Below, in pieces: positions 1 to 10,925 of a DNA stretch of 10,925 nt. Origin of the DNA: a bacterium (GTDB lineage Bacteria; Patescibacteriota; Minisyncoccia; Phycocordibacterales; Zambryskibacteraceae); NCBI GenBank assembly GCA_030649135.1, contig JAUSGI010000001.1:1-10925 (forward strand), in the 5' to 3' direction. Below the pieces are notes generated by a model, which ran no database searches, had not been told where the DNA came from, and saw only the letters and a list, made by a program, of their open reading frames with translations. Numbering within the stretch: the first letter of the stretch is position 1; every line of letters starts with the position of its first letter. Both the position numbers and the translations under genes were made by a program.

Positions 1-84
1 TGTGAGCCTACGGTAAACTCAATGACAAGGACTAAGTCGTAACAAGGCACGGGTAGCGGAAGCTGCTCGTGGAGTAATTCAATT
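1..84 (+). rRNA. rrs: 16S rRNA, 3'-terminal fragment (the gene continues upstream of the window)
   Basis: Contains AAGTCGTAACAAGG, the complement of the universal 1492R site. Next comes CACGGGTAGC-GGAA-GCTGCTCGTG, a 10-bp helix with a GGAA tetraloop homologous to 16S helix 45, maintained by compensatory base changes. TGGA then follows, as in the canonical ...TGGATCACCTCCTTA terminus. Seen directly; the homology is by eye against the E. coli 3' end from memory. Confidence 0.75.
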
Positions 85-93
85 TGAAATCGT

Positions 94-109
94 TGTCTCG
101 ATAGAGACA
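94..109 (+). other. Perfect 6-bp hairpin (TGTCTC-GATA-GAGACA) in the 16S 3' trailer; possible processing stem
   Basis: Inverted repeat seen directly. A second GNRA hairpin, TTCAAC-GCAA-GTTGAA, lies at about 148-163. The function is inferred. Confidence 0.3.
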
Positions 110-221
110 GCTTATAGTGTCGATATTTCAACGCAAGTTGAAGTGGACAATTGCGCCAGTCCTAAAAGACGCATGACAATACGGAAAGACGTTACGGAAC
201 AAAATAGAGAACGATATTAAG

Positions 222-246
222 AAAACCGCCGCAAGGCGGTTTTCTT
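222..246. terminator. Bidirectional intrinsic terminator shared by the 16S transcript (+) and tRNA-Ile (-)
   Basis: AAAA-CCGCC-GCAA-GGCGG-TTTTCTTGTT. A GC stem with a GCAA tetraloop is flanked by an A-tract on one side and a T-tract on the other, so it can terminate on either strand. Confidence 0.7.
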
Positions 247-253
247 GTTGAAG

Positions 254-326
254 TGCGCGCACTAGGGGTCGAACCTAGGACCTTTCGAGTATCAGTCGAA
301 TGCTCTACCAACTGAGCTATGCGCGC
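254..326 (-). tRNA. tRNA-Ile (anticodon GAT), 73 nt, CCA not encoded
   Basis: The reverse complement folds into a canonical cloverleaf. The acceptor is GCGCGCA/TGCGCGC and the D arm is GCTC-AGTTGGTA-GAGC. The anticodon stem is TTCGA/TCGAA with loop CTGATAC (U33, GAU, A37). The T arm is CTAGG-TTCGACC-CCTAG, and the discriminator is A. Confidence 0.9.
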
Positions 327-352
327 GGACAAAACACACAATATCAAGAAAA

Positions 353-380
353 TTGCTCTTTCACAATACGTTGGTATAAT
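353..380 (+). promoter_or_regulatory. Sigma70-type promoter with extended -10: TTGCTC -35, 16-nt spacer, TGgTATAAT
   Basis: TTGCTC is at 353-358 and TGGTATAAT at 372-380. The predicted TSS at about 387-388 falls 1-2 nt before ATG 389, giving a leaderless configuration. Confidence 0.5.
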
Positions 381-388
381 GTCCTTTA

Positions 389-646
389 ATGCCGAAAAAT
401 AAGATTATCATCGCCCTAGGATTACTGATAGCGCTTCTGCCGCTTCTCGGGTTTCCTCGTCTCTGGGAGTCATTTTTCCAAGTAGCGACCGGGCTATCCA
501 TAGTACTTATTCTTGTCTGGGCTAGTATAGATAAACGTCTTTCTCTTAAGGCTAAAGCTCAAAGGCGCCAAATTCATAAACGCCGACAAGCAGAGATAGA
601 AGCCAGCAGGGCGACAGAATCCATCGTTCAGGAAGAAATACTCTGA
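389..646 (+). CDS. Small membrane protein, 85 aa, with two predicted TM helices and a basic C-terminal tail
   Basis: Supplied ORF. Hydrophobic stretches IIIALGLLIALLPLLGF and VATGLSIVLILVWA are followed by a Lys/Arg-rich tail. The stop TGA at 644-646 lies 1 nt before the next ATG, so the genes are coupled. A promoter sits immediately upstream. Confidence 0.45.
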   Translation: MPKNKIIIALGLLIALLPLLGFPRLWESFFQVATGLSIVLILVWASIDKRLSLKAKAQRRQIHKRRQAEIEASRATESIVQEEIL

Positions 647-647
647 C

Positions 648-1814
648 ATGTCGTGGTTCAAGCGAAGTCTCGTATCGGTTACCGCGGCAAGTTTCGCCAT
701 TTTTCTTATCACTATTCTGTTGCCATCGTTTTTCGAATCTACTTATGATGCATCAACCTCTCTCACGAATCAGCCCCAAGTAGCATCTGTTCAAGCTGTG
801 GTAGTCAGTCACCAAGAGACCCCCGTACCTCTTAGGGCGCTTTACATGACTGCTTGCGTGGCCGGTACTCCGTCCTGGCGCGAGAATTTGAAAAAACTGG
901 TTGAGACAACCGAACTCAATGCCGTGGTGATAGATATCAAAGATTACACAGGAGTGGTCTCTTTTCCCAACGAATTTCCCAAGACGAATCTTGGCCACGG
1001 GTGTGTAGTTTCCGATATGTCTGAATTTATACAAACGCTTCATGATACTAAGATTTATGTCATTGGACGCATCTCCGTTTTCCAGGACCCTTCTTACACC
1101 AAACTTTTTCCCGCACTCGCAGTTAGAAAGAAAAGTGATGGTGAAGTCTGGAAGGATTATAAGGGTCTTTCTTTTATTGATGTCGGGGCGAAGCCTTATT
1201 GGGATTATATTGTGGCAATTTCGGAAGAGGCTTACGCACTCGGATTTGATGAGCTCAATTATGACTATGTTCGCTATCCTTCCGATGGCAATATAAAAGA
1301 CGCACTCTATACTTGGGCTGTCGGTACGACTACAAAGCCGGAGATGCTTGAAAGTTTTTTTGAATATCTGAAAGATAATTTGGAACATACGGGAGCCAAA
1401 CTTTCTGTCGACCTTTTCGGCATGACCACTACCGTGGAGAATGATATGAATATTGGACAAGTGCTTGAACTGGCCTTGCCTTATTTTGATTATGTCAGCC
1501 CGATGGTTTATCCTTCGCACTATCCTCCCACGTGGAACGGTTTTGCCAAACCTGCCGAGCACCCGTATGAAGTAGTGAAATTTGCTATGGCAAGAGGCAT
1601 GGAACGCGAACGAACTTTAAATACAGCAAACGGCCTAGCCACATCCACTCCGTCCAAACTTCGGCCTTGGTTACAGGACTTCAATCTCGGTGCGACTTAT
1701 GGACCGGACAAAGTCCGTGCCCAAATCCAAGCAACTTATGATGTCGGTCTCTCAAGTTGGATGATTTGGAACGCGGGGAATAAATATACCACTTCCGCGC
1801 TTTTACCGGAGTAG
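648..1814 (+). CDS. Membrane-anchored TIM-barrel putative glycoside hydrolase (DUF4015/GHL-like family), 388 aa
   Basis: Supplied ORF. An N-terminal signal-anchor helix is present. Motifs NAVVIDIKDYTG and ELNYDYVRYPSDG are typical of the putative-glycosyl-hydrolase DUF4015/GHL families (family assignment from memory, moderate). Codon usage matches the rest of the window. Confidence 0.8.
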   Translation: MSWFKRSLVSVTAASFAIFLITILLPSFFESTYDASTSLTNQPQVASVQAVVVSHQETPVPLRALYMTACVAGTPSWRENLKKLVETTELNAVVIDIKDYTGVVSFPNEFPKTNLGHGCVVSDMSEFIQTLHDTKIYVIGRISVFQDPSYTKLFPALAVRKKSDGEVWKDYKGLSFIDVGAKPYWDYIVAISEEAYALGFDELNYDYVRYPSDGNIKDALYTWAVGTTTKPEMLESFFEYLKDNLEHTGAKLSVDLFGMTTTVENDMNIGQVLELALPYFDYVSPMVYPSHYPPTWNGFAKPAEHPYEVVKFAMARGMERERTLNTANGLATSTPSKLRPWLQDFNLGATYGPDKVRAQIQATYDVGLSSWMIWNAGNKYTTSALLPE

Positions 1815-1815
1815 C

Positions 1816-1844
1816 TTGACAATACCTTCTCTAAGGTGTATAAT
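1816..1844 (+). promoter_or_regulatory. Perfect consensus sigma70 promoter: TTGACA, 17-nt spacer, TATAAT, with TG immediately 5' of the -10
   Basis: TTGACA is at 1816-1821 and TATAAT at 1839-1844. The predicted TSS is at about 1851. Confidence 0.7.
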
Positions 1845-1891
1845 ACTAAGAGACGTAGAATTGGCCGAATTTCCGCTAAGGAGAGCTTAAA

Positions 1892-2236
1892 ATGCTCGCT
1901 TCCACGAAACCCAACAAGGTAAAGCTGTACCGGCATCCCGGACAGGTAACCTCGAGTCTGACTGTGCGCCGAATTCTCTTCGACTTCGAGAAGATGGGGG
2001 TTAAGTGTCTGAGTATCGAGGACGACATCGTGAAGGGGTGGTGCCGCAATCCGGCGACCTACCCGCAGGAATTCCGCGACAAGGTCCTCTACCTCGGGGG
2101 GAAGACCGAGGTTCGAGGAGGCTGCGAGTCGGTACCCTGCCTGACGTGGTTTCCAGGCCTGGTGTCCGAGAAGTGGCTGCCGCTCGATACCAAGATCGGA
2201 GACACGTTCGTTGTCGCTCGACTGGCATCGTTCTAG
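1892..2236 (+). CDS. Hypothetical 114-aa protein encoded in a GC-rich, compositionally foreign island; Cys-containing, no recognisable family
   Basis: A strong SD, AAGGAGAG at 1878-1885, lies 8 nt before ATG 1892, which is the first in-frame start after a TAA. Codon third positions are about 77% G/C while the region is about 58% GC. That period-3 bias argues for coding rather than ncRNA. The stop TAG at 2234-2236 comes just before the terminator. Confidence 0.7.
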   Translation: MLASTKPNKVKLYRHPGQVTSSLTVRRILFDFEKMGVKCLSIEDDIVKGWCRNPATYPQEFRDKVLYLGGKTEVRGGCESVPCLTWFPGLVSEKWLPLDTKIGDTFVVARLASF

Positions 2237-2246
2237 TTCTGCAGTT

Positions 2247-2290
2247 CGCCCGGCACCCACGCAAGTGAGTGCCGGGCGGTTTTGTTTTTT
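2247..2290 (+). terminator. Strong rho-independent terminator
   Basis: CGCCCGGCAC (2247-2256) pairs perfectly with GTGCCGGGCG (2269-2278) as a 10-bp stem with a 12-nt loop. GTTTTGTTTTTT follows. Confidence 0.85.
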
Positions 2291-2292
2291 GT

Positions 2293-2300
2293 TGTATAAT
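2293..2300 (+). promoter_or_regulatory. TGTATAAT extended -10-like element 7 nt upstream of the ATPase ATG; a leaderless configuration, and a direct repeat of 1837-1844
   Basis: The 8-mer is identical to the one in the consensus promoter at 1837-1844. There is no good -35 upstream, because that region is the terminator stem. Confidence 0.4.
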
Positions 2301-2307
2301 TAGCGCG

Positions 2308-3978
2308 ATGGCAGATTCGCCAAAAGACCAAGTAATATATTTTGCCGAGACAGACTCGCGTAATAACCGCAAGAAGTTTGGAATTAAGACCGAAGATCGC
2401 TCCAAACATGTCTATGTCATAGGTAAGACCGGCATGGGCAAGTCCACGCTTCTTGAGAACATGGCTATTCAGGATATTCAAAATGGCAACGGTATTGCTT
2501 TCATCGACCCTCATGGCGGTACGGCAGAAAAACTTTTGGATTTTGTGCCCAAAGAGCGCATCAAGGATGTGTTGTATTTCGCTCCTTTTGATACTGAATA
2601 TCCGGTTGCCTTTAACGTCATGGAAGATGTCGGCGCCAACAAACGGCATCTAGTAGTCAGCGGTCTTATGAGCGCCTTCATGAAGCTCTTCGGGGAAGAG
2701 AGTTTTTCCGACAGAATGCAGTACATTCTCCAGAATACCATTCTTGCTCTTCTTGAGTATCCCGGTTCGACCATGCTCGGTATCAATAAAATGCTCGTTG
2801 ATAAGGAATATCGAAAAAATGTAATAGCGAATATTACTGATCCGTCGGTTAAGGCCTATTGGACACAGGAATATGCCGGTTACACAGAACGTTTCGCCGC
2901 AGAAGCTATACCCGCCATTCAGAACAAGATAGGCCAGTTCACATCAAATCCACTCATCAGAAATATCATTGGTCAAGAGAAATCCAGTTTCAATCTTCGA
3001 AAAATCATGGACGAGAAGAAGATTGTAATCGTCAATCTTTCCAAAGGCCGCGTAGGTGAAGACAATGCCCGCCTGCTTGGCTCGATGTTAATTACCAAAA
3101 TATATCTGGCGGCCATGTCACGCGCCGACGAGCGCGCCTCCTCGCTTGCCAAGCTCCCGCCATTTTTTCTGTACGTAGACGAATTCCAATCATTTGCCGA
3201 CAAGTCCTTCGCCGATATTTTGTCGGAAGCTCGCAAATATAAACTCAACCTGACCATGGCTCATATGTATATAGAACAGATGGAAGAAGAAGTGCGCGAT
3301 GCCGTCTTCGGCAACGTCGGCACCATGATAGTCTTCCGCGTGGGGGCTTACGACGCCGATGTATTGGAAAAGGAATTTGCCCCGGTTTTTATTGCAGAGG
3401 ATTTGGTCAACTTGGGATTGCGCCAAATCTACCTCAAACTGATGATAGACTCGGTGGCATCGCCGCCATTCTCCGCCACCACCATGCCGCCAATGCAGTC
3501 TTCAGAGGTTTCCCACACGGAGGAAATTATAGAATATTCTCGCAAGACCTTCGCCCAGCCAAGAAGTGAGGTTGAGAAACGTATCACCGACTGGCATGAA
3601 GCAGGCCGAGTGGCGGTAAAGACCGCTCCGCCCAGAGTGTTTAGCGCGCCTCCGATAGTTAAACCACAGGAGAAAAGACCGATAGAGAAAGTAATCTTAC
3701 CTGTCATGCCCGCGCATGCAGGGCAGGTAGGGAGTAAAATAGAACCCAAACCGCTTCCAAGCATTTCTCTCGAAACTCTGAAAAAGAGCACTGATAATCA
3801 GCGCAAGCCGGACGCCAAGCATGTCGCTGACCTGCGAGATGCGCTCAGAGCCATGACAGGGAATCAGCCGAAGCTAGAGACACCACCCCAGCCTCAAGTA
3901 CAACCGGTACACCCCCAGCCGACCATAAAGAAGGAACCTAGTCAGGAAGAGCTCAAAAAAATCCTCGATGTCCAATAA
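2308..3978 (+). CDS. TraG/VirD4/TrwB-like (type IV coupling-protein-like) P-loop ATPase with no N-terminal TM segment and a Pro/Gln-rich disordered C-terminal tail
   Basis: Walker A is VIGKTGMGKST, followed by IAFIDPHGG. Walker B is FFLYVDEFQSF, then NVGTMIVFRVG. This pattern is typical of the VirD4/TraG/DUF87 ATPase family. The start is taken as ATG 2308 (MADSPKDQ...) rather than the track's GTG 2269, which lies inside the terminator hairpin. The stop TAA at 3976-3978 overlaps the next gene. Confidence 0.8.
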   Translation: MADSPKDQVIYFAETDSRNNRKKFGIKTEDRSKHVYVIGKTGMGKSTLLENMAIQDIQNGNGIAFIDPHGGTAEKLLDFVPKERIKDVLYFAPFDTEYPVAFNVMEDVGANKRHLVVSGLMSAFMKLFGEESFSDRMQYILQNTILALLEYPGSTMLGINKMLVDKEYRKNVIANITDPSVKAYWTQEYAGYTERFAAEAIPAIQNKIGQFTSNPLIRNIIGQEKSSFNLRKIMDEKKIVIVNLSKGRVGEDNARLLGSMLITKIYLAAMSRADERASSLAKLPPFFLYVDEFQSFADKSFADILSEARKYKLNLTMAHMYIEQMEEEVRDAVFGNVGTMIVFRVGAYDADVLEKEFAPVFIAEDLVNLGLRQIYLKLMIDSVASPPFSATTMPPMQSSEVSHTEEIIEYSRKTFAQPRSEVEKRITDWHEAGRVAVKTAPPRVFSAPPIVKPQEKRPIEKVILPVMPAHAGQVGSKIEPKPLPSISLETLKKSTDNQRKPDAKHVADLRDALRAMTGNQPKLETPPQPQVQPVHPQPTIKKEPSQEELKKILDVQ

Positions 3979-5062
3979 ACGCATTCTAATATTTTCCCTC
4001 GCATATTATCCGGTGGAAGGCGGTGCAGAGATTGCAGTTAAAGAAATCACCAATCGTATTTCCGACATTGAATTTGACATGATTACTTTGCGTTTCGATC
4101 AGGCACACTTGCCTAAAGAGAAAATAGGGAATTGCACGGTATATCGTATAAACACCTCTAAGAATCTATACCCGTTTAGAGCTTTTTTATTTGCCCGGAA
4201 GTTGCATAAAAACCGGCCATACGATGCTACATGGGCCATTATGGCCAATTGGGCTGGATTTGCTGCGCTCTTTTTCAAGTTTTATTTTCCAAGTGTACCC
4301 TATGCACTCAACCTACAAGAAGGTGATCCCATCTCCTATATCAAACATAAGGTCTGGTTTGTCTACCCCTTGTTCAAAAGGATTTTTCTCTATGCGGACA
4401 TTATCCAGGCCATTTCAAAATATTTAGCAGACTGGGCACGAGAGATGGGTTACGAGGGACGATTAGAAGTGATACCCAACGGAGTAAATGTAAAAAGATT
4501 TGAAAACGAGAATCCAAAAGCTAAAAACGAGACAATCACTCTTATAACCACCTCCCGCCTTGTAGAGAAGAATGCTGTCGGAGATATCATAGATGCTTTA
4601 AAATTCCTGCCAGTGAATATGAAATTAAAGATTCTTGGCACGGGACCACTAGAATCGGATTTGAAGCAAAAAACTAAAGATCAGAGTTTGGAGAGTAGGG
4701 TAGAATTTTTAGGAAATATTCTTAATGATAATCTGCCAAAATATTTACACGAAGCCGATATTTTTATCAGACCATCACTTTCGGAAGGTATGGGCATCTC
4801 GTTTATTGAAGCTATGGCTGCCGGTTTGCCGGTCATTGCCACACCAGTTGGCGGTATTCCGGATTTTCTGAAAGATAGAGAGACTGGACTCTTCTGCAGA
4901 GTTAATGACCCAAAAAGTATTGCAGATAAAGTGATGGAGTATGTAAATAATCCCAAACTGGCATCTCAAATTGTAAAAAATGCAAAAGAAATGGTCGTTA
5001 GGAAATACGACTGGGACTTGATTGCGGAGGAGATGAAAAGGCAAGTTTTTGATAAAGTGTAG
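3968..5062 (+). CDS. GT4-family (GT-B fold) glycosyltransferase
   Basis: EGMGISFIEAMAAGLPVIATPVGGIPDF is an E-X7-E motif in a GT4 C-terminal domain. The start overlaps the upstream stop by 11 nt, consistent with translational coupling. Confidence 0.9.
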   Translation: MSNKRILIFSLAYYPVEGGAEIAVKEITNRISDIEFDMITLRFDQAHLPKEKIGNCTVYRINTSKNLYPFRAFLFARKLHKNRPYDATWAIMANWAGFAALFFKFYFPSVPYALNLQEGDPISYIKHKVWFVYPLFKRIFLYADIIQAISKYLADWAREMGYEGRLEVIPNGVNVKRFENENPKAKNETITLITTSRLVEKNAVGDIIDALKFLPVNMKLKILGTGPLESDLKQKTKDQSLESRVEFLGNILNDNLPKYLHEADIFIRPSLSEGMGISFIEAMAAGLPVIATPVGGIPDFLKDRETGLFCRVNDPKSIADKVMEYVNNPKLASQIVKNAKEMVVRKYDWDLIAEEMKRQVFDKV

Positions 5063-5064
5063 AT

Positions 5065-6069
5065 ATGCGCATTCTTATAGTCACAGGTATATATCCTCCT
5101 GAAATAGGGGGCCCGGCTGAATATGCCCTAAACCTCAAAGATACTTGGGTAAGGCAGGGCCATAAGGTAAAGGTCAAGATTTTTGGCCGATTTAGAAAAA
5201 TTCCATGGGGTATAAGGCATGTAATATTTCTTGTTTATATTTTGCCATCAGTAATGTGGTCAGACTGTATTTTTACACTCGATGCCTTTACTGCGGGAGT
5301 GTCTACTGTGGCCTCAAAGTTATTCAATAAGAAAAACATCTTCCGTACGGGAGGGGACGCGCTCTGGGAGCTATATGTAGAAAGAACGAACGATTTGGTT
5401 TTGTTACGGGATTTTTATAGAACGAGGCTTAAAAAATTGTCTGTGAAAGAGAAAGTAACATTCCATCTGATGAAATGGGCCCTACGAAATTTGTCCGCTA
5501 TTATCTGGAGTACCGAATGGCAGAAGAATATTTTCATGGAGCCGTATCATCTTTCTCGGCAAAACCATTTCATCGTGGAGAATTACTATGGGCCGAAGCT
5601 GGAATCGCGAAGGCCTGCAACCAAGAATTTTATCGCTGGGACTCGAAAGCTGAAATGGAAAAATATCGTGTTAGTTCAAAAAGTTTTTGAGCATAAGGAT
5701 ACCAAAGAGTCCGGAGCTATTTTGGATACTAGCATTGTCCATCACGACGAGTTTCTCAATAAGTTAAGCCAATCTTACGCTGTTATCATCGCCTCGCTAG
5801 GTGATATTAGCCCGAATACGATATTGGATGCCATAAGGTGTGGCAAACCCTTCATTCTGACTAGAGAAAATGGTCTCTACAGCCGTATTAAGGATATCGG
5901 TCTCTTTGTTGATCCCCAAGACGAGGAAGATATCAAAAGCAAGGTCCTTTGGCTCGTGCAAGAGGGCAATTATGCGAGCCAAAAGGCTAAGATTGATAGT
6001 TTCAGCTTCAGTCATACCTGGGAAGAAATTGCCGGAGAGTACATAACAGCTTTTAACTCAATCAAATGA
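5065..6069 (+). CDS. Divergent GT-B fold glycosyltransferase (GT4-like N-terminal domain)
   Basis: MRILIVTGIYPPEIGGPAEY is a typical GT4 N-terminal motif. The C-terminal half is Rossmann-like without a clean EX7E. The ATG lies 2 nt after the upstream TAG. Confidence 0.75.
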   Translation: MRILIVTGIYPPEIGGPAEYALNLKDTWVRQGHKVKVKIFGRFRKIPWGIRHVIFLVYILPSVMWSDCIFTLDAFTAGVSTVASKLFNKKNIFRTGGDALWELYVERTNDLVLLRDFYRTRLKKLSVKEKVTFHLMKWALRNLSAIIWSTEWQKNIFMEPYHLSRQNHFIVENYYGPKLESRRPATKNFIAGTRKLKWKNIVLVQKVFEHKDTKESGAILDTSIVHHDEFLNKLSQSYAVIIASLGDISPNTILDAIRCGKPFILTRENGLYSRIKDIGLFVDPQDEEDIKSKVLWLVQEGNYASQKAKIDSFSFSHTWEEIAGEYITAFNSIK

Positions 6070-7196
6070 AAGTTTTAATGATCTCAAGTGATAGGAATAT
6101 TTTGGTTCCCGGGAGCGCTGTTTCGGAGCGGATGAAAGAGTATGGAAATTTAGTCGAAGAGCTTCATATTGTGCTTATGTCAGATGCACGGCACAAATTG
6201 AAGGATAAGCAGTTGTCGAATAATGTATGGGTCTACACAACGAATTCCCCGATGACTTTTATGCGTCCGTTCAATGCCGCTCGGCTTGGCAGAAAAGTGG
6301 TATTTGATAGTCAGTTTGTGCGGGGGCGATCCATTATCACCACCCAAGATCCTTTCGAGTGTGGATGGGCTGGATTAAGGATAAAGAAGAGATGGAAGAT
6401 ACCATTGGAAGTACAACTGCATACTGACCCGTTTTCACCGTATTTTTCTGGTTTATTAAATCAGATCCGAAAAATTATTGCGAGAAGAGTTTTGCGTAAT
6501 GCCAATAGTGTACGGGTGGTTACTCTCGGTCTTAAAACTAAAGTTTCCGCTTTTACTTCTGCCGACATTAGTGTCTTGCCGATATATGTTGACCGTAAGC
6601 ACATTGAGGAGGCGAAAATTTCCTTTGACCTGCATACGCGTTATCCTTGGCATTTTATTCTGCTTGCCGTCTCGCGTCTTGCACCAGAGAAGAATCTTAG
6701 TCTGGCTCTTCGGGTGCTTGTACTTGTGCGAGAAAGATTCCCGGATACGGGACTGGTGATAGTCGGCTCTGGTCCGGAAGAAGGGCGGCTTAAGGCACTT
6801 ACTCAAAAGCTTAAACTTGTAGGAGCGGTTGAGTTTGTGGGTTGGCAGGACGATTTAACTTCCTTTTATAAAACTGCCAATGTCTTTATTCAAACCTCTA
6901 TCTTTGAGGGTTATGGCCTGTCATTAGTGGAGGCTGGTCTGTCCGACTTACCGGTCGTTACCACACCGGTTGGCATTGCACAAGAGTTGGAGAATGGTAA
7001 GGACGCATATATATATCCTGCAAATAATATCGAGGCTTTCGCAAATGGCATTGTAGACTTAATCGAGAATAATCAAAAGCGTGAAAACTTGCGTTTAAAC
7101 ATGAAGCAAACTCTCGAGGTAATGCTTATATCTAAAGGAGAATATCTAAAGGAGCTAAAGTCCAGTTGGGAGAAAACTGCTTTAAAGGTTAATTAG
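6066..7196 (+). CDS. GT4-family (GT-B fold) glycosyltransferase
   Basis: The segment LAVSRLAPEKN...EGYGLSLVEAGLSDLPVVTTPVG carries an EX7E motif. There is an ATGA start/stop overlap with the upstream gene. Confidence 0.9.
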   Translation: MKVLMISSDRNILVPGSAVSERMKEYGNLVEELHIVLMSDARHKLKDKQLSNNVWVYTTNSPMTFMRPFNAARLGRKVVFDSQFVRGRSIITTQDPFECGWAGLRIKKRWKIPLEVQLHTDPFSPYFSGLLNQIRKIIARRVLRNANSVRVVTLGLKTKVSAFTSADISVLPIYVDRKHIEEAKISFDLHTRYPWHFILLAVSRLAPEKNLSLALRVLVLVRERFPDTGLVIVGSGPEEGRLKALTQKLKLVGAVEFVGWQDDLTSFYKTANVFIQTSIFEGYGLSLVEAGLSDLPVVTTPVGIAQELENGKDAYIYPANNIEAFANGIVDLIENNQKRENLRLNMKQTLEVMLISKGEYLKELKSSWEKTALKVN

Positions 7197-7443
7197 AACA
7201 GGGAAGCTGTGGATAAGTATAAGATATTAGAAATTAAATCAACATAGCCATAATAGTCATAAGAATGGGTCAATGCACATTATGAATATAATTATAAAGG
7301 TTTTTCTTAATAAAATTAAAATAGTTTATTAAGGTTTAATAATGTTTGTAAATCTTTCTACTCGGACTTAAAAAGCATAAGTTCACTACTTTTTGAGTCT
7401 TCATTCTATCCTTATTTTATAAGGCATTTTACCAATTTTTACT

Positions 7444-7452
7444 TGGTATAAT
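7444..7452 (+). promoter_or_regulatory. Extended -10 element TGGTATAAT (identical 9-mer to the one at 372-380), with a weak -35
   Basis: It lies at the end of a 275-bp region of about 75% AT. The predicted TSS at about 7459 falls just after an in-frame TAG (7456-7458) and 12 nt before the TTG start. Confidence 0.45.
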
Positions 7453-7470
7453 CATTAGACAACAAATAAT

Positions 7471-10400
7471 TTGAAAGCCCAAAGATTGCTAGCAACTGGA
7501 TTGAGCGGTTTTATAATCGGAATTTTGGTTCTCAGTTTTTTAGGGGTATCTTTAAATAAGGTTTTTGCGGCGGGACCACCCTCAATTTTGAGCTATCAAG
7601 GTCGCCTTACTAATGCTTCAGGAAGTCTTCTTGGTGGTTCATCCGGAACTACTTTCTATTTCAAATTTTCAATATGGAGTGCTGCTAGTGGCGGGGCAAA
7701 GCTCTGGCCAGCATCCGACCCGACATCTTATGGCATTACGGTCAGAGAAGGCGTATTCAATGTAAATATTGGCGACACTACGAATGGTTATCCAGATACG
7801 CTTAATTATGATTTCTCGACGAGCACGAATGTATTTTTAAAGGTTGAAGTTTCTGATGATGATGTTGATTTTGAAACTCTCACTCCGCGACAGCAAATCA
7901 ATTCTGTCGCTTTTGCTCAAGTGGCGGGGGCGGTAGTTAGTGCATCTTCCACCATCGCCAATCTCACTGGTACTAACGCCACTACTACCAATGCTACTTC
8001 CACAAATTTCTTTAGTACTACAGCATCTTCAACAAATCTTTTTTCTGCCGCCATAACTTCAGGCTCTGCTATCTTTGCGAATCTTTTGGTAACCAGCTCA
8101 TCAACGCTCCAAAATTTCACTTTCACAAATGCTACAGGAACTTCCGCTACTACGACCAATCTCTTCTCCACCACTGCATCATCTTCCAACTTATTCACGG
8201 CATTATTCAACGGCGCTGGGTTAGCCACTTGCCAATCGAACAACGTCCTCACCTGGTCTGGTGGTATTTTCGGTTGCGAAACGGACGACAACACCTTCGC
8301 ATGGACTCCCATCTCTTACGGTACTCAAAACGTAGTTGCGACATCGACCGGCCTCTGGCTCAAAGGCTCACCTCTAGGCTTAGTTGCTTCTTCTACTTTC
8401 GCCACTTACTCCACCTCGACCAATGCCACCTCGACTAACTTTTTCTCTACTATCGCTTCGTCTACCAGTCTTTTCACATCAGCTTTGACCGTGAATGGCT
8501 TCGCCTTCACGGTCAATGGCGCTCCCACTTTGAACGACTGGTTCGACCAGTCCCTTAAGATCTCGGACGGGCCCGCTTTTTCCACTATCGATACTGGCCA
8601 TGGGGGTAATGAGCTCTATGCTATGGACCAAAACGTTCGGATCTCCGACGACGTAATCTTCGACGAACTCTTGCTAACCGGTTCTTCCACTTTGAGAAAT
8701 TTCACCTTCTTAAACGCCACCGGCACTTCCGCTACTACCACTAACTTCTTCGCCACGAATGCAAGTTCGACAAATCTCTTTACTACTCGACTTGGCATTG
8801 GCACTTCAAACCCCAGCAGTGCTCTAGAAGTTAATGGTGATATTCGTATCACCGCGAATTCCGGAGGGCGTCTCTACTTTAGTGATAGTTCCACACAAAA
8901 TAGTGCAATCGTGTCGGGAAGTGGTATTACAAGTTGGAGCGACTTGAATTTTCAAACCGGCGGAATCATGAACTTCCAAACCGGTAATGGTCTCGGCACC
9001 GCTACCACTACTCATATGGTTTTGGCTAATAACGGTAATATCGGGATTGGTACCACAACCCCAGGCACCCCGCTTGCTGTCACCGGTGCCGGAGTATTTA
9101 CTGGGTTAGTGACGGCACCCTTTTTCAATGCCACTTCTACAACCGATGTTTCTAATTTCCAACAAGTTCTCGTCCTTGCTTCCTCCACTCTTCAAAACTT
9201 TACTTTCTTAAACGCCACCGGCACTTCTGCTACTACCACTAGCTTCTTTGCTACTGTTTTAAATGCTACTACTGCTTCCACCACTAATCTTTTAGTAACC
9301 AGCTCATCAACGCTCCAAAATTTCACTTTCACAAATGCTACAGGAACTTCCGCCACCACCACCAATCTTTTCTCCACCACCGCATCATCTTCCAACTTAT
9401 TCACAGCATTATTCAACGGTGCCGGTCTTGCCACCTGCCAAACCAACAACGTCCTCACCTGGTCTGGTGGTATTTTCGGTTGCGAAACGGACGACAACAC
9501 CTTCGCATGGACTCCCACCTCTTACGGTACTCAAAACGTAGTTGCGACATCGACCGGTTTATGGCTCAAAGGTTCGCCTCTAGGCTTAATTGCCTCTTCT
9601 ACTTTCGCCACTTACTCCACCTCGACCAATGCTACTTCTACTAATTTCTTTGCCACCACGGCTTCATCCACTAGTCTTTTCGCAGCGGTCTTATCATCAG
9701 GCTCCGCCACCCTCGGCGATCTTTTACTTAACAGCTCATCGACACTCCAAAACTTTACTTTCCTAAATGCTACTGGCACTAACGCTACCACTACCAATAT
9801 TTTCTCCACCACTGCTTCTTCTACTAATCTTTTCACCGCTCTTTTCAATGGCGCTGGTCTTGCTACCTGCCAGACCAACAACATGCTCACTTGGGCTGGA
9901 GGAACATTCGGTTGCGAGGTTGATAATGATACCTTCGAATGGACTCCCACCGCTTGGGGCAACTCTACTTCCACCACTCTCGGTTTCTCGCAAGGTTTCC
10001 TCTCTACCGCTTCTTCTACCATAGACTCCAACTTGATTATCACTGGTAACTCCACTACTACCAACGCCACCACTACCAATATTTTCTCCACCACCGCATC
10101 ATCAACCGGTCTTTTTGCAGCGGTTTTATCATCAGGCTCCGCCACCTTCGGCGATCTTTTAATAAATAGCTCATCGACACTCCAAAACTTTACTTTCTTA
10201 AATGCTACTGGCACTAACGCTACCACTACCAATATTTTCTCCACCACCGCATCCACCACTAACTTCTTTGGTGCTGACTTAACCCCATGTACTTCAAATA
10301 ACGTCTTGACTTGGACAGGGGGGAAGTTTGGCTGTGAAGCAGATGACACCGGTAGTGCCACCTTCGGCAAAGACTGGAACATCTTTACCGTTGGCCGGCT

Positions 10401-10925
10401 TGCCCCGACTACCACAGTGGCTGTTTATGTGGGAGCAACCACCACAGCCTCCCTTACCAACAACTCGTACTTCCAAGTGAATGCGACTTCCACTACTGGA
10501 GACTTAATCGTGGCTTCTTCCTCCCAGGACTTCACTGGCAACTTCTTAAGATTCCTCAATGCCGCTGGTGCAACTCTCTTCTCTGTTGATAATACCGGTT
10601 CTTTGATTGCCGCTTCCACTACTTTCACCAACGCTACCTCGACCAATCTCTTCTCCACCACCGCATCTTCATCGAACCTCTACACCGCTCTCTTTAATGG
10701 CGCCGGTCTTGCCACTTGCCAAACCAACAACGTCCTCACCTGGGCCGGTGGAGAGTTCGGTTGCGAAGCGGATGATAGCGGCAGCGCTGGCTTCGGCAAA
10801 ACTTTTGAAATGTCCAACACCAACTTCCTCGCTCCCACCACCACGGTCTCGGTGATTATCGGCTCCACCACCACCCCGGACAAAAGCGCTTTATTCCAAG
10901 TGAACGCCACCGGCACCACAGGTAA
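7471..10925 (+). CDS. Giant secreted Thr/Ser/Asn-rich tandem-repeat surface protein, 3'-partial (at least 1,151 codons; continues beyond the window)
   Basis: I translated the frame by hand from TTG 7471 (TTG 7486 is an alternative start) to the window end and found no stop codon. The N-terminus, KAQRLLATGLSGFIIGILVLSFLGVSLNKVFA|AG, is a signal peptide. The body consists of repeated modules S-T-L-Q-N-F-T-F-x-N-A-T-G-T-x-A-T-T-T-N-x-F-S-T-T-A-S-S-x-N-L-F followed by A-L-F-N-G-A-G-L-A-T-C-Q-T-N-N-V-L-T-W-x-G-G-x-F-G-C-E-x-D-D. The ORF track omits it because no stop lies in the window and the start is TTG. Confidence 0.85.
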   Translation, partial: MKAQRLLATGLSGFIIGILVLSFLGVSLNKVFAAGPPSILSYQGRLTNASGSLLGGSSGTTFYFKFSIWSAASGGAKLWPASDPTSYGITVREGVFNVNIGDTTNGYPDTLNYDFSTSTNVFLKVEVSDDDVDFETLTPRQQINSVAFAQVAGAVVSASSTIANLTGTNATTTNATSTNFFSTTASSTNLFSAAITSGSAIFANLLVTSSSTLQNFTFTNATGTSATTTNLFSTTASSSNLFTALFNGAGLATCQSNNVLTWSGGIFGCETDDNTFAWTPISYGTQNVVATSTGLWLKGSPLGLVASSTFATYSTSTNATSTNFFSTIASSTSLFTSALTVNGFAFTVNGAPTLNDWFDQSLKISDGPAFSTIDTGHGGNELYAMDQNVRISDDVIFDELLLTGSSTLRNFTFLNATGTSATTTNFFATNASSTNLFTTRLGIGTSNPSSALEVNGDIRITANSGGRLYFSDSSTQNSAIVSGSGITSWSDLNFQTGGIMNFQTGNGLGTATTTHMVLANNGNIGIGTTTPGTPLAVTGAGVFTGLVTAPFFNATSTTDVSNFQQVLVLASSTLQNFTFLNATGTSATTTSFFATVLNATTASTTNLLVTSSSTLQNFTFTNATGTSATTTNLFSTTASSSNLFTALFNGAGLATCQTNNVLTWSGGIFGCETDDNTFAWTPTSYGTQNVVATSTGLWLKGSPLGLIASSTFATYSTSTNATSTNFFATTASSTSLFAAVLSSGSATLGDLLLNSSSTLQNFTFLNATGTNATTTNIFSTTASSTNLFTALFNGAGLATCQTNNMLTWAGGTFGCEVDNDTFEWTPTAWGNSTSTTLGFSQGFLSTASSTIDSNLIITGNSTTTNATTTNIFSTTASSTGLFAAVLSSGSATFGDLLINSSSTLQNFTFLNATGTNATTTNIFSTTASTTNFFGADLTPCTSNNVLTWTGGKFGCEADDTGSATFGKDWNIFTVGRLAPTTTVAVYVGATTTASLTNNSYFQVNATSTTGDLIVASSSQDFTGNFLRFLNAAGATLFSVDNTGSLIAASTTFTNATSTNLFSTTASSSNLYTALFNGAGLATCQTNNVLTWAGGEFGCEADDSGSAGFGKTFEMSNTNFLAPTTTVSVIIGSTTTPDKSALFQVNATGTTG
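8083..8476 (+). repeat. Intragenic direct repeat, copy A (about 390 nt), paired with 9289..9682
   Basis: The offset is exactly 1206 nt with no indels. Roughly nine in ten nucleotides are identical by eye across the compared core (8091-8230 vs 9297-9436). Nearly all differences are synonymous third positions, and the proteins differ at only about 3 of roughly 118 residues. Confidence 0.8.
9289..9682 (+). repeat. Intragenic direct repeat, copy B, paired with 8083..8476
   Basis: See copy A. Confidence 0.8.

Follow-up and report, generated by a model that had tools for sequence, protein, structure and literature searches.

The locus and its giant gene

The DNA analyzed here, called the window below, comprises the 10,925 nucleotides (nt) of contig JAUSGI010000001.1 (positions 1 to 10,925 of the forward strand, GenBank assembly GCA_030649135.1), from a bacterium of the Patescibacteria lineage (GTDB family Zambryskibacteraceae). 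Its right-hand part is occupied by a truncated gene for a giant surface protein, in which two modules, copy A and copy B, resemble each other far more closely than any other pair (Table 1). In this work we examined how A and B arose and diverged. They are a dispersed, in-frame duplication kept under strong purifying selection, and their history very probably combined module duplication and long-term purifying selection with occasional short gene conversion in a probable Patescibacteria surface-fiber gene.

After the stop codon at 7456-7458, the frame of the giant gene stays open as far as the window reaches, passing through A, the spacer, B and three more modules. The NCBI annotation reads 'MAG: hypothetical protein Q7R69_00045, partial [bacterium]', where MAG stands for metagenome-assembled genome, and the corresponding protein entry (P0001) is 100% identical. 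The TTG start was deduced from the N-terminus of the closest full-length homolog, P0002; the NCBI model begins 18 codons downstream. The predicted leader is basic, then hydrophobic, and ends in VFA followed by AGPPS, a layout also present in P0002. Nucleotides 97-384 of the gene match the P0002 gene at 72%. The protein contains 19% Thr, 13% Ser and 9% Asn. On the coding strand, GC skew between 7601 and 10925 ranges from -0.17 to -0.42, reflecting the dominance of ACC, ACT, TCC, TCT and GCC codons. Enrichment in N-glycosylation sequons was considered and rejected, since N-x-S/T occurs 33 times against a shuffled-composition expectation of 31.9 +/- 4.4.

Table 1. Features of the giant surface-protein gene (nt, nucleotides; aa, amino acids; dS, synonymous divergence per synonymous site)
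Feature	Position	Strand	Remarks
Truncated gene for giant Thr/Ser/Asn-rich surface protein	7471..10925	+	At least 1151 codons; continues past the 3' end of the contig
Predicted signal peptide or membrane anchor	7471..7569	+	(M)KAQRLLATGLSGFIIGILVLSFLGVSLNKVFA then AGPPS; read from the translation
Conserved N-terminal domain	7570..7950	+	SILSYQGRL...TPRQQINSVAFAQVAG; common to P0002; no Pfam hit
Copy A	8080..8475	+	NxT/STNLF stalk repeats, Cys-x14-Cys loop, FAWTP...GLWLKGSPLGL element, next stalk repeat
59-nt tract identical in A and B	8089..8147 (partner 9295-9353)	+	
Divergent patch	8214..8238	+	9 differences in 25 nt
Cys codons of copy A	8230-8232 and 8275-8277	+	
73-nt tract identical in A and B	8239..8311 (partner 9445-9517)	+	
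Divergent 3' block	8427..8466	+	14 differences in 40 nt; within the generic NATSTNFF-STxASSTSLF stalk repeat
Spacer between A and B	8476..9285	+	810 nt; non-repeated at offset 1206
Copy B	9286..9681	+	90.7% nt and 96% aa identity to A
Cys codons of copy B	9436-9438 and 9481-9483	+	
Module M3	9718..10116	+	Older paralog of A and B; 67-69% aa identity, dS ~1.3-1.4
Module M4	10153..10533	+	Older variant; C-terminal half differs (FGKDW...LAPTTTV...FQVNATSTTG)
Module M5	10612..10925	+	M4-type variant, truncated where the contig ends

The visible part of the gene holds at least five modules of ~130-145 aa and three partial units. A module is made of four elements in succession: a stalk repeat (SSTLQNFTFxNATGTSATTTNLFSTTASSSNLF), a Cys loop (GAGLATCQxNNVLTWxGGxFGCExDD), an element FAWTP...TSTGLWLKGSPLGLxASSTF that is present in A, B and more loosely in M3, and the following stalk repeat. 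The protein has five Cys pairs with a spacing of 15 residues, one pair per module. A and B are the closest of the five modules, every other pair having a dS of at least ~1.1 or being saturated, with DNA identities of 56-68%.

Copies A and B form a dispersed in-frame duplication

Codon-by-codon comparison aligned A with B without gaps, in the same frame and at a constant offset of 1206 nt over 396 nt (132 codons), as the original prediction had proposed from the letters alone. The bounds given there for A, 8083-8476, were approximately right; the best 5' edge lies 3 nt further out, at 8080, and the 3' edge one base earlier, at 8475. The unit is thus 132 aa long rather than the 118 aa first reported. 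Of the 396 nt, 37 are mismatched between the two copies (90.7% identity); over the 394 nt originally delimited the number is 38. The pair was also retrieved by self-BLAST, with 90.5% identity over 399 nt. At this offset the flanks of the block are much less similar, with 49% identity immediately upstream and 33% immediately downstream.

The 37 differences comprise 28 transitions and 9 transversions and fall mostly in third codon positions (30, against five in first and two in second positions). Five of the 132 residues change (S/T, I/T, V/I, S/A and I/T), which gives 96% aa identity; about three such changes had been reported in the original prediction. In the first 140 nt, 11 differences were found where ~13 had been counted, and they are not all third-position changes as had been claimed, TTA/CTT including a change at the first position.

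The spacer contains, as read from its translation, a TVNGFAFTVNGAPTLNDWFDQ element, one partial stalk unit and two xGIGTxxP units. The TVNGFAFTVNGAPTLNDWFDQ and xGIGTxxP elements recur in the homologs P0002 and P0024, and module matches in the spacer are partial only (protein residues 399-453 and 565-600). The arrangement of A and B is therefore a dispersed duplication of one module and not a tandem array.

Purifying selection acts on the module

Nonsynonymous (dN) and synonymous (dS) divergence were estimated by the Nei-Gojobori method with bootstrap 95% confidence intervals (CI). Between A and B this gave 29.5 synonymous and 7.5 nonsynonymous changes, with dS = 0.36 (95% CI 0.23-0.53) and dN = 0.026. 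The resulting dN/dS (omega) was 0.072 (95% CI 0.025-0.138; Fisher p = 6e-13), whereas random point changes in copy A would alter an amino acid in 74% of cases. Comparison of A and B with the modules of P0123, a complete relative from a different genome, gave saturated dS values of 1.5-2.1 and dN/dS of 0.08-0.11.

Purifying selection on the amino-acid sequence of the module is thus supported both within the gene and between genomes, in agreement with the original claim that it is strong. The differences that remain between A and B are mainly silent because this selection removed nearly all amino-acid changes.

Mosaic divergence and probable gene conversion

Divergence between A and B is unevenly distributed. 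Perfect identity extends over tracts of 73, 59, 39 and 38 nt. From 8239 to 8351 there is a single difference in 113 nt, a nonsynonymous ATC/ACC change, with no synonymous change across ~38 codons, whereas 13 of the last 18 codons are changed. Permutations that kept the number of changed codons and weighted their placement by synonymous opportunity produced identical runs as long as the two longest observed (24 and 19 codons) in only 0.2% of trials (p = 0.002).

Third copies of the module bear on the origin of this pattern. In the patch at 8212-8247, B matches M5 (at 10699) in 34 of 36 positions and A in 28 of 36, with A standing apart from B, M3 and M5. In the 3' block at 8427-8466, third copies from elsewhere in the gene match equally well or better than the partner copy. 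Further material of this kind exists in the same genome. At least two more module copies, with 86-93% aa identity to A and B, lie in the gene fragment P0006 (Q7R69_03725), and a third fragment of the same MAG has other modules in common with the window gene. P0006 and P0030 were classed as paralogous fragments of this MAG; P0006 could be either the missing 3' part of the window gene or a paralog.

A homologous pair in P0123 behaves in the same way. Its two copies (399 nt, 90.5% identity, 837 nt apart) are nucleotide-identical over ~87 consecutive codons (~260 nt) bar one synonymous difference, and then continue in diverged sequence, which is a signature of conversion or of recent copying. As with A and B, the two copies of P0123 are nearest to each other: A and B have 96% aa identity and a dS of 0.36 within their genome, against ~70% aa identity and the saturated dS given above between genomes. 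The most likely cause of the A/B mosaic would be occasional short gene conversion among module copies of this gene and of paralogs in the same genome.

A simpler history would be a single old duplication followed by independent drift under purifying selection, the spacing of the differences being due to codons with few synonymous options or to chance. The values of omega and dS fit simple divergence, as does the prevalence of third-position transitions, and the third-copy signal in the patch, 34 against 28 of 36 matches, is modest. However, clustering persisted when the permutation was weighted by synonymous opportunity, the contrast between the silent-free stretch and the densely changed end of the module is sharp, and relatives contain clear stretches of 260-496 nt that are identical although the repeats around them have diverged. 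Drift without conversion is tenable, but we consider it a good deal less probable than a history that included conversion.

Internal repeats in related genes

To place A and B in a wider frame, the long genes of ten other related loci were surveyed for gapless, in-frame, non-overlapping internal repeats. The survey yielded 25 dispersed repeat pairs with identities from 99.1% to 69%. All pairs with dS of at least 0.2 had dN/dS of 0.04-0.13. The two youngest pairs (dS 0.02 and 0.07) had dN/dS of ~0.35 on very few changes, and identical runs in the youngest pairs reached 496 nt. A and B fit into this graded series, in which modules duplicate, diverge and occasionally undergo gene conversion. Since identities in relatives run continuously from 99 to 69%, the ~91% identity of A and B reflects their age and not a set point.

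These data also address the proposal, made in the original prediction, that silent divergence lowers recombination or slippage between the copies. In its selective form, synonymous recoding would have been favored because it stabilizes the gene, and a divergence of 9% would in general be expected to reduce recombination efficiency somewhat. RecA-type recombination has a minimal processing segment of ~25-30 nt. The perfect tracts that persist between A and B, of 73 and 59 nt and also of 39 and 38 nt, exceed this length, which disfavors the idea. The differences are clumped, while an even spread would break homology most efficiently; neither over-dispersion of synonymous differences nor an intragenic dS above that of orthologs was seen. 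Relatives keep repeats of 93-99% identity, with runs up to the 496 nt mentioned above, in the same type of gene, and high values are not avoided along the continuum. In addition, the copies bear signs of real exchange. We found no support for the proposal in these data, regard such recoding as very unlikely, and would not use the A/B pair as evidence of a design that avoids recombination.

Integrity of the assembly and programmed variation

Strain variants or paralogous genes could have been stitched together in such a way that A and B do not belong to one gene. The window is a short-read metagenome contig that ends inside a repeat array, and near-identical module paralogs are present in the same MAG. 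Against stitching, the frame stays open from A across the spacer and B to the three modules that follow, and a layout of module, unique elements and module also occurs in complete genes of relatives, such as the P0123 pair separated by 837 nt. Assembly k-mers longer than the maximum identical tract of 73 nt can resolve A from B. In the independent Logan assembly of SRR13727527, one contig is 100% identical to the window from 3294 to 8118. This contig breaks off within the 59 nt that A and B have in common, as expected if a real repeat is present in the reads. An artifact of this kind is therefore very unlikely, about as much so as selected recoding. Breaks recur in this repeat family: the window contig ends in M5, the Logan contig in an A/B tract, and P0006 begins in the middle of a module (NTFAWTPTTYGTQ...).

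Programmed variation between template and variable repeats of a diversity-generating retroelement (DGR), or an overlapping antisense gene, can practically be dismissed: although Patescibacteria often carry DGRs according to the literature, and open reading frames (ORFs) on the opposite strand overlap both copies (7917-8312 and 9192-9518, one of them called as a gene on the Logan contig), adenine is involved in only 8 of 37 differences and in both directions, the changes are mostly silent third-position transitions and not A-to-N substitutions in first and second codon positions, no reverse transcriptase domain was found among the ORFs of the window, and the antisense frames share wobble positions with the sense frame, which makes their apparent conservation automatic, while showing 4 amino-acid changes against 2 in the sense frame over the same stretch and varying in length between modules. 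The DGR reading was rejected on the kind of differences between A and B and on the lack of a reverse transcriptase in the window. The antisense ORFs at 7917-8312 (-), 9192-9518 (-) and 9612-10415 (-) look like compositional artifacts of Thr/Ser-rich sense codons.

A clade-restricted protein family

Searches with the whole protein returned 223 relatives, almost all from MAGs of Patescibacteria, Parcubacteria, Paceibacterota or Minisyncoccia. Peptidase_S74 (PF13884) is present in 32 of the 120 listed homologs, and several are named 'tail fiber domain-containing protein'; whole-protein matches to proteins with either attribute had E values from 1e-185 to 1e-17. With module A as query, an exhaustive HMMER search of 1.84 billion proteins gave 227 representatives at E<=1e-3, whereas a word-indexed protein search with the module alone gave one weak match, probably owing to its low-complexity composition. 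Many proteins of the module family are giants, with up to 6621 aa and up to 36 matching stretches. Where loci were recovered from genome contigs, these were labeled Patescibacteria, Parcubacteria, Paceibacterota, Saccharibacteria, Zambryskiibacteriota or unclassified 'bacterium'. As judged from these searches, the family is small, restricted to the Patescibacteria clade and devoid of a curated domain model.

The complete relative P0123 (3935 aa) combines Peptidase_S74 with LVIVD repeats. It is encoded at L036 1001-12808 of JGI metagenome 3300076124, and has a mid-protein intein with an inserted NYN-domain region; an intein in a surface-fiber gene is unusual. P0123 (L036) and P0008 (L002/L003) have the same upstream neighbors, GatB followed by a small, oppositely oriented MerR/HTH_17 gene. 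At their N-termini, both carry a conserved IGYA(S/A)DYVGQLCR.KKIP ahead of the membrane anchor, in place of which the window protein begins with a simple leader resembling a signal peptide.

Upstream of the giant gene, the window contains a tRNA-Ile gene (anticodon GAT; 253-326, -) at the left end of the contig, a putative DUF4015 glycosyl hydrolase gene (648-1814, +) and, downstream of the latter, a gene for a HerA/TrwB-like P-loop ATPase (2269-3978, +) with weak Pfam hits only. The ATPase gene overlaps by 11 nt the first of three consecutive, partly overlapping genes for family 4 glycosyltransferases (GT4; 3968-7196, +), which lie directly upstream of the giant gene. A cluster of GT4 and methyltransferase genes is also found within a few kb of the P0002 gene (L037 8709-12558), but downstream of it. 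These GT4 neighbors may point to a link between the fiber and glycan synthesis. The intergenic region at 7197-7470 is 274 nt long and AT-rich (~35% GC). It includes an extended -10-like sequence, TGGTATAAT, at 7444-7452, ~19 nt before the proposed TTG, and no obvious Shine-Dalgarno sequence. A consensus promoter scan left this site unranked because there is no match to a -35 element.

Discussion

The relation between A and B is an ordinary one: an old internal duplication kept by purifying selection, and not a special design. It is reasonable to think that the gene would have been built by repeated, non-tandem duplication of modules, of which A and B are the youngest pair visible in the window. 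Mutations would then have accumulated in both copies to a dS of ~0.36, selection on the protein would have purged nearly all amino-acid changes and left mainly silent differences, and short gene-conversion events among module copies would have made blocks of identity alternate with blocks dense in differences.

The product of the gene is most likely a cell-surface fiber, secreted or membrane-anchored, by analogy with relatives that carry Peptidase_S74. S74 domains act as intramolecular chaperones for the trimeric tail spikes and fibers of phages, and by the same analogy we infer that the fiber assembles as a trimer.

Several points weigh against the history and function proposed here. Independent confirmation of the assembly ends at 8118, short of most of A and all of B. 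The case for conversion leans on clustering in one pair of 132 codons and on one patch common to a third copy, in addition to the relatives, and uneven synonymous constraint could mimic part of the clustering. As to fold and function, neither the module profile nor the window protein matched Pfam, PHROGs, NCBIfam or PDB sequences. AlphaFold2 models of the module as a monomer, built from alignments of 23 and 40 sequences, reached predicted local distance difference test (pLDDT) scores of 49 and 55 and a predicted template modeling (pTM) score of ~0.2; the sole feature recurring in both low-confidence models was a beta-hairpin between the two cysteines. The closest full-length homolog, P0002, had no Pfam hit, PF13884 being absent at E<0.01, and the C-terminal part of the window gene, where a Peptidase_S74 domain would lie, is missing.

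The value of the A/B pair is that it marks an uncharacterized, Patescibacteria-restricted family of giant modular surface proteins whose modules are strongly conserved (dN/dS ~0.1 across genomes). Episymbiotic Patescibacteria could plausibly use such proteins to attach to their hosts. Their repeats also explain why genes of this type break metagenome assemblies.

A more speculative extension, which we hold to be improbable, is that near-identical modules spread over at least two and probably three giant paralogous genes of this small genome (the window gene, Q7R69_03725 and Q7R69_00050) constitute a cassette pool that exchanges short segments by conversion. If this were true, an episymbiotic Patescibacteria cell could use the pool to vary or reshuffle surface fibers that possibly contact hosts, and the pool would amount to a system of variation by recombination whose unit is an undescribed module containing a disulfide-loop element.

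Comparison with known systems

The S74-terminated, tail-fiber-like giant surface proteins of Patescibacteria are close parallels. The likeness includes Thr/Ser/Asn-rich stalk repeats (SSTLQNFTFxNATGTSATTTNFFSTTASSTNLF), the Cys loop and xGIGTxxP units, as well as the same clade and a modular, internally repeated build. The difference is that the modules of the window protein are absent from every curated family searched. In the literature on described Patescibacteria fiber proteins nothing specific was found.

Contingency loci resemble the present case solely in that repeats lie within a surface-protein gene. The units of A and B are 396 nt long, non-adjacent and diverged, and the window is without a simple-sequence tract. 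The contrast with contingency loci drawn in the original prediction is correct but trivial, given that A and B are non-adjacent modules of this size.

Periscope proteins are bacterial surface proteins with long tandem repeats that are near-identical in DNA, a property proposed to let repeats be gained and lost (Whelan et al., 2021, PMC8201768). Like them, the window protein is a large surface protein made of repeated domain-sized units that presumably form a stalk, and recombination between repeats is relevant to its evolution. Unlike Periscope repeats, A and B are not in tandem; they lie 810 nt apart and are 9% diverged, and neighboring modules are 30-40% diverged. Tandem Repeats Finder detected no long-period array in the window and returned only two trivial arrays (1.9 copies of a 14-nt unit and 2.1 copies of a 15-nt unit).

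Concerted evolution, or gene conversion, is a general phenomenon among repeats within genes and among paralogous genes for surface proteins. A and B share with it a greater similarity of copies within than between genomes, mosaic identity and a patch common to a third copy. They differ from it in that homogenization is weak and old, a dS of 0.36 corresponding to long and mostly independent evolution of the two modules.

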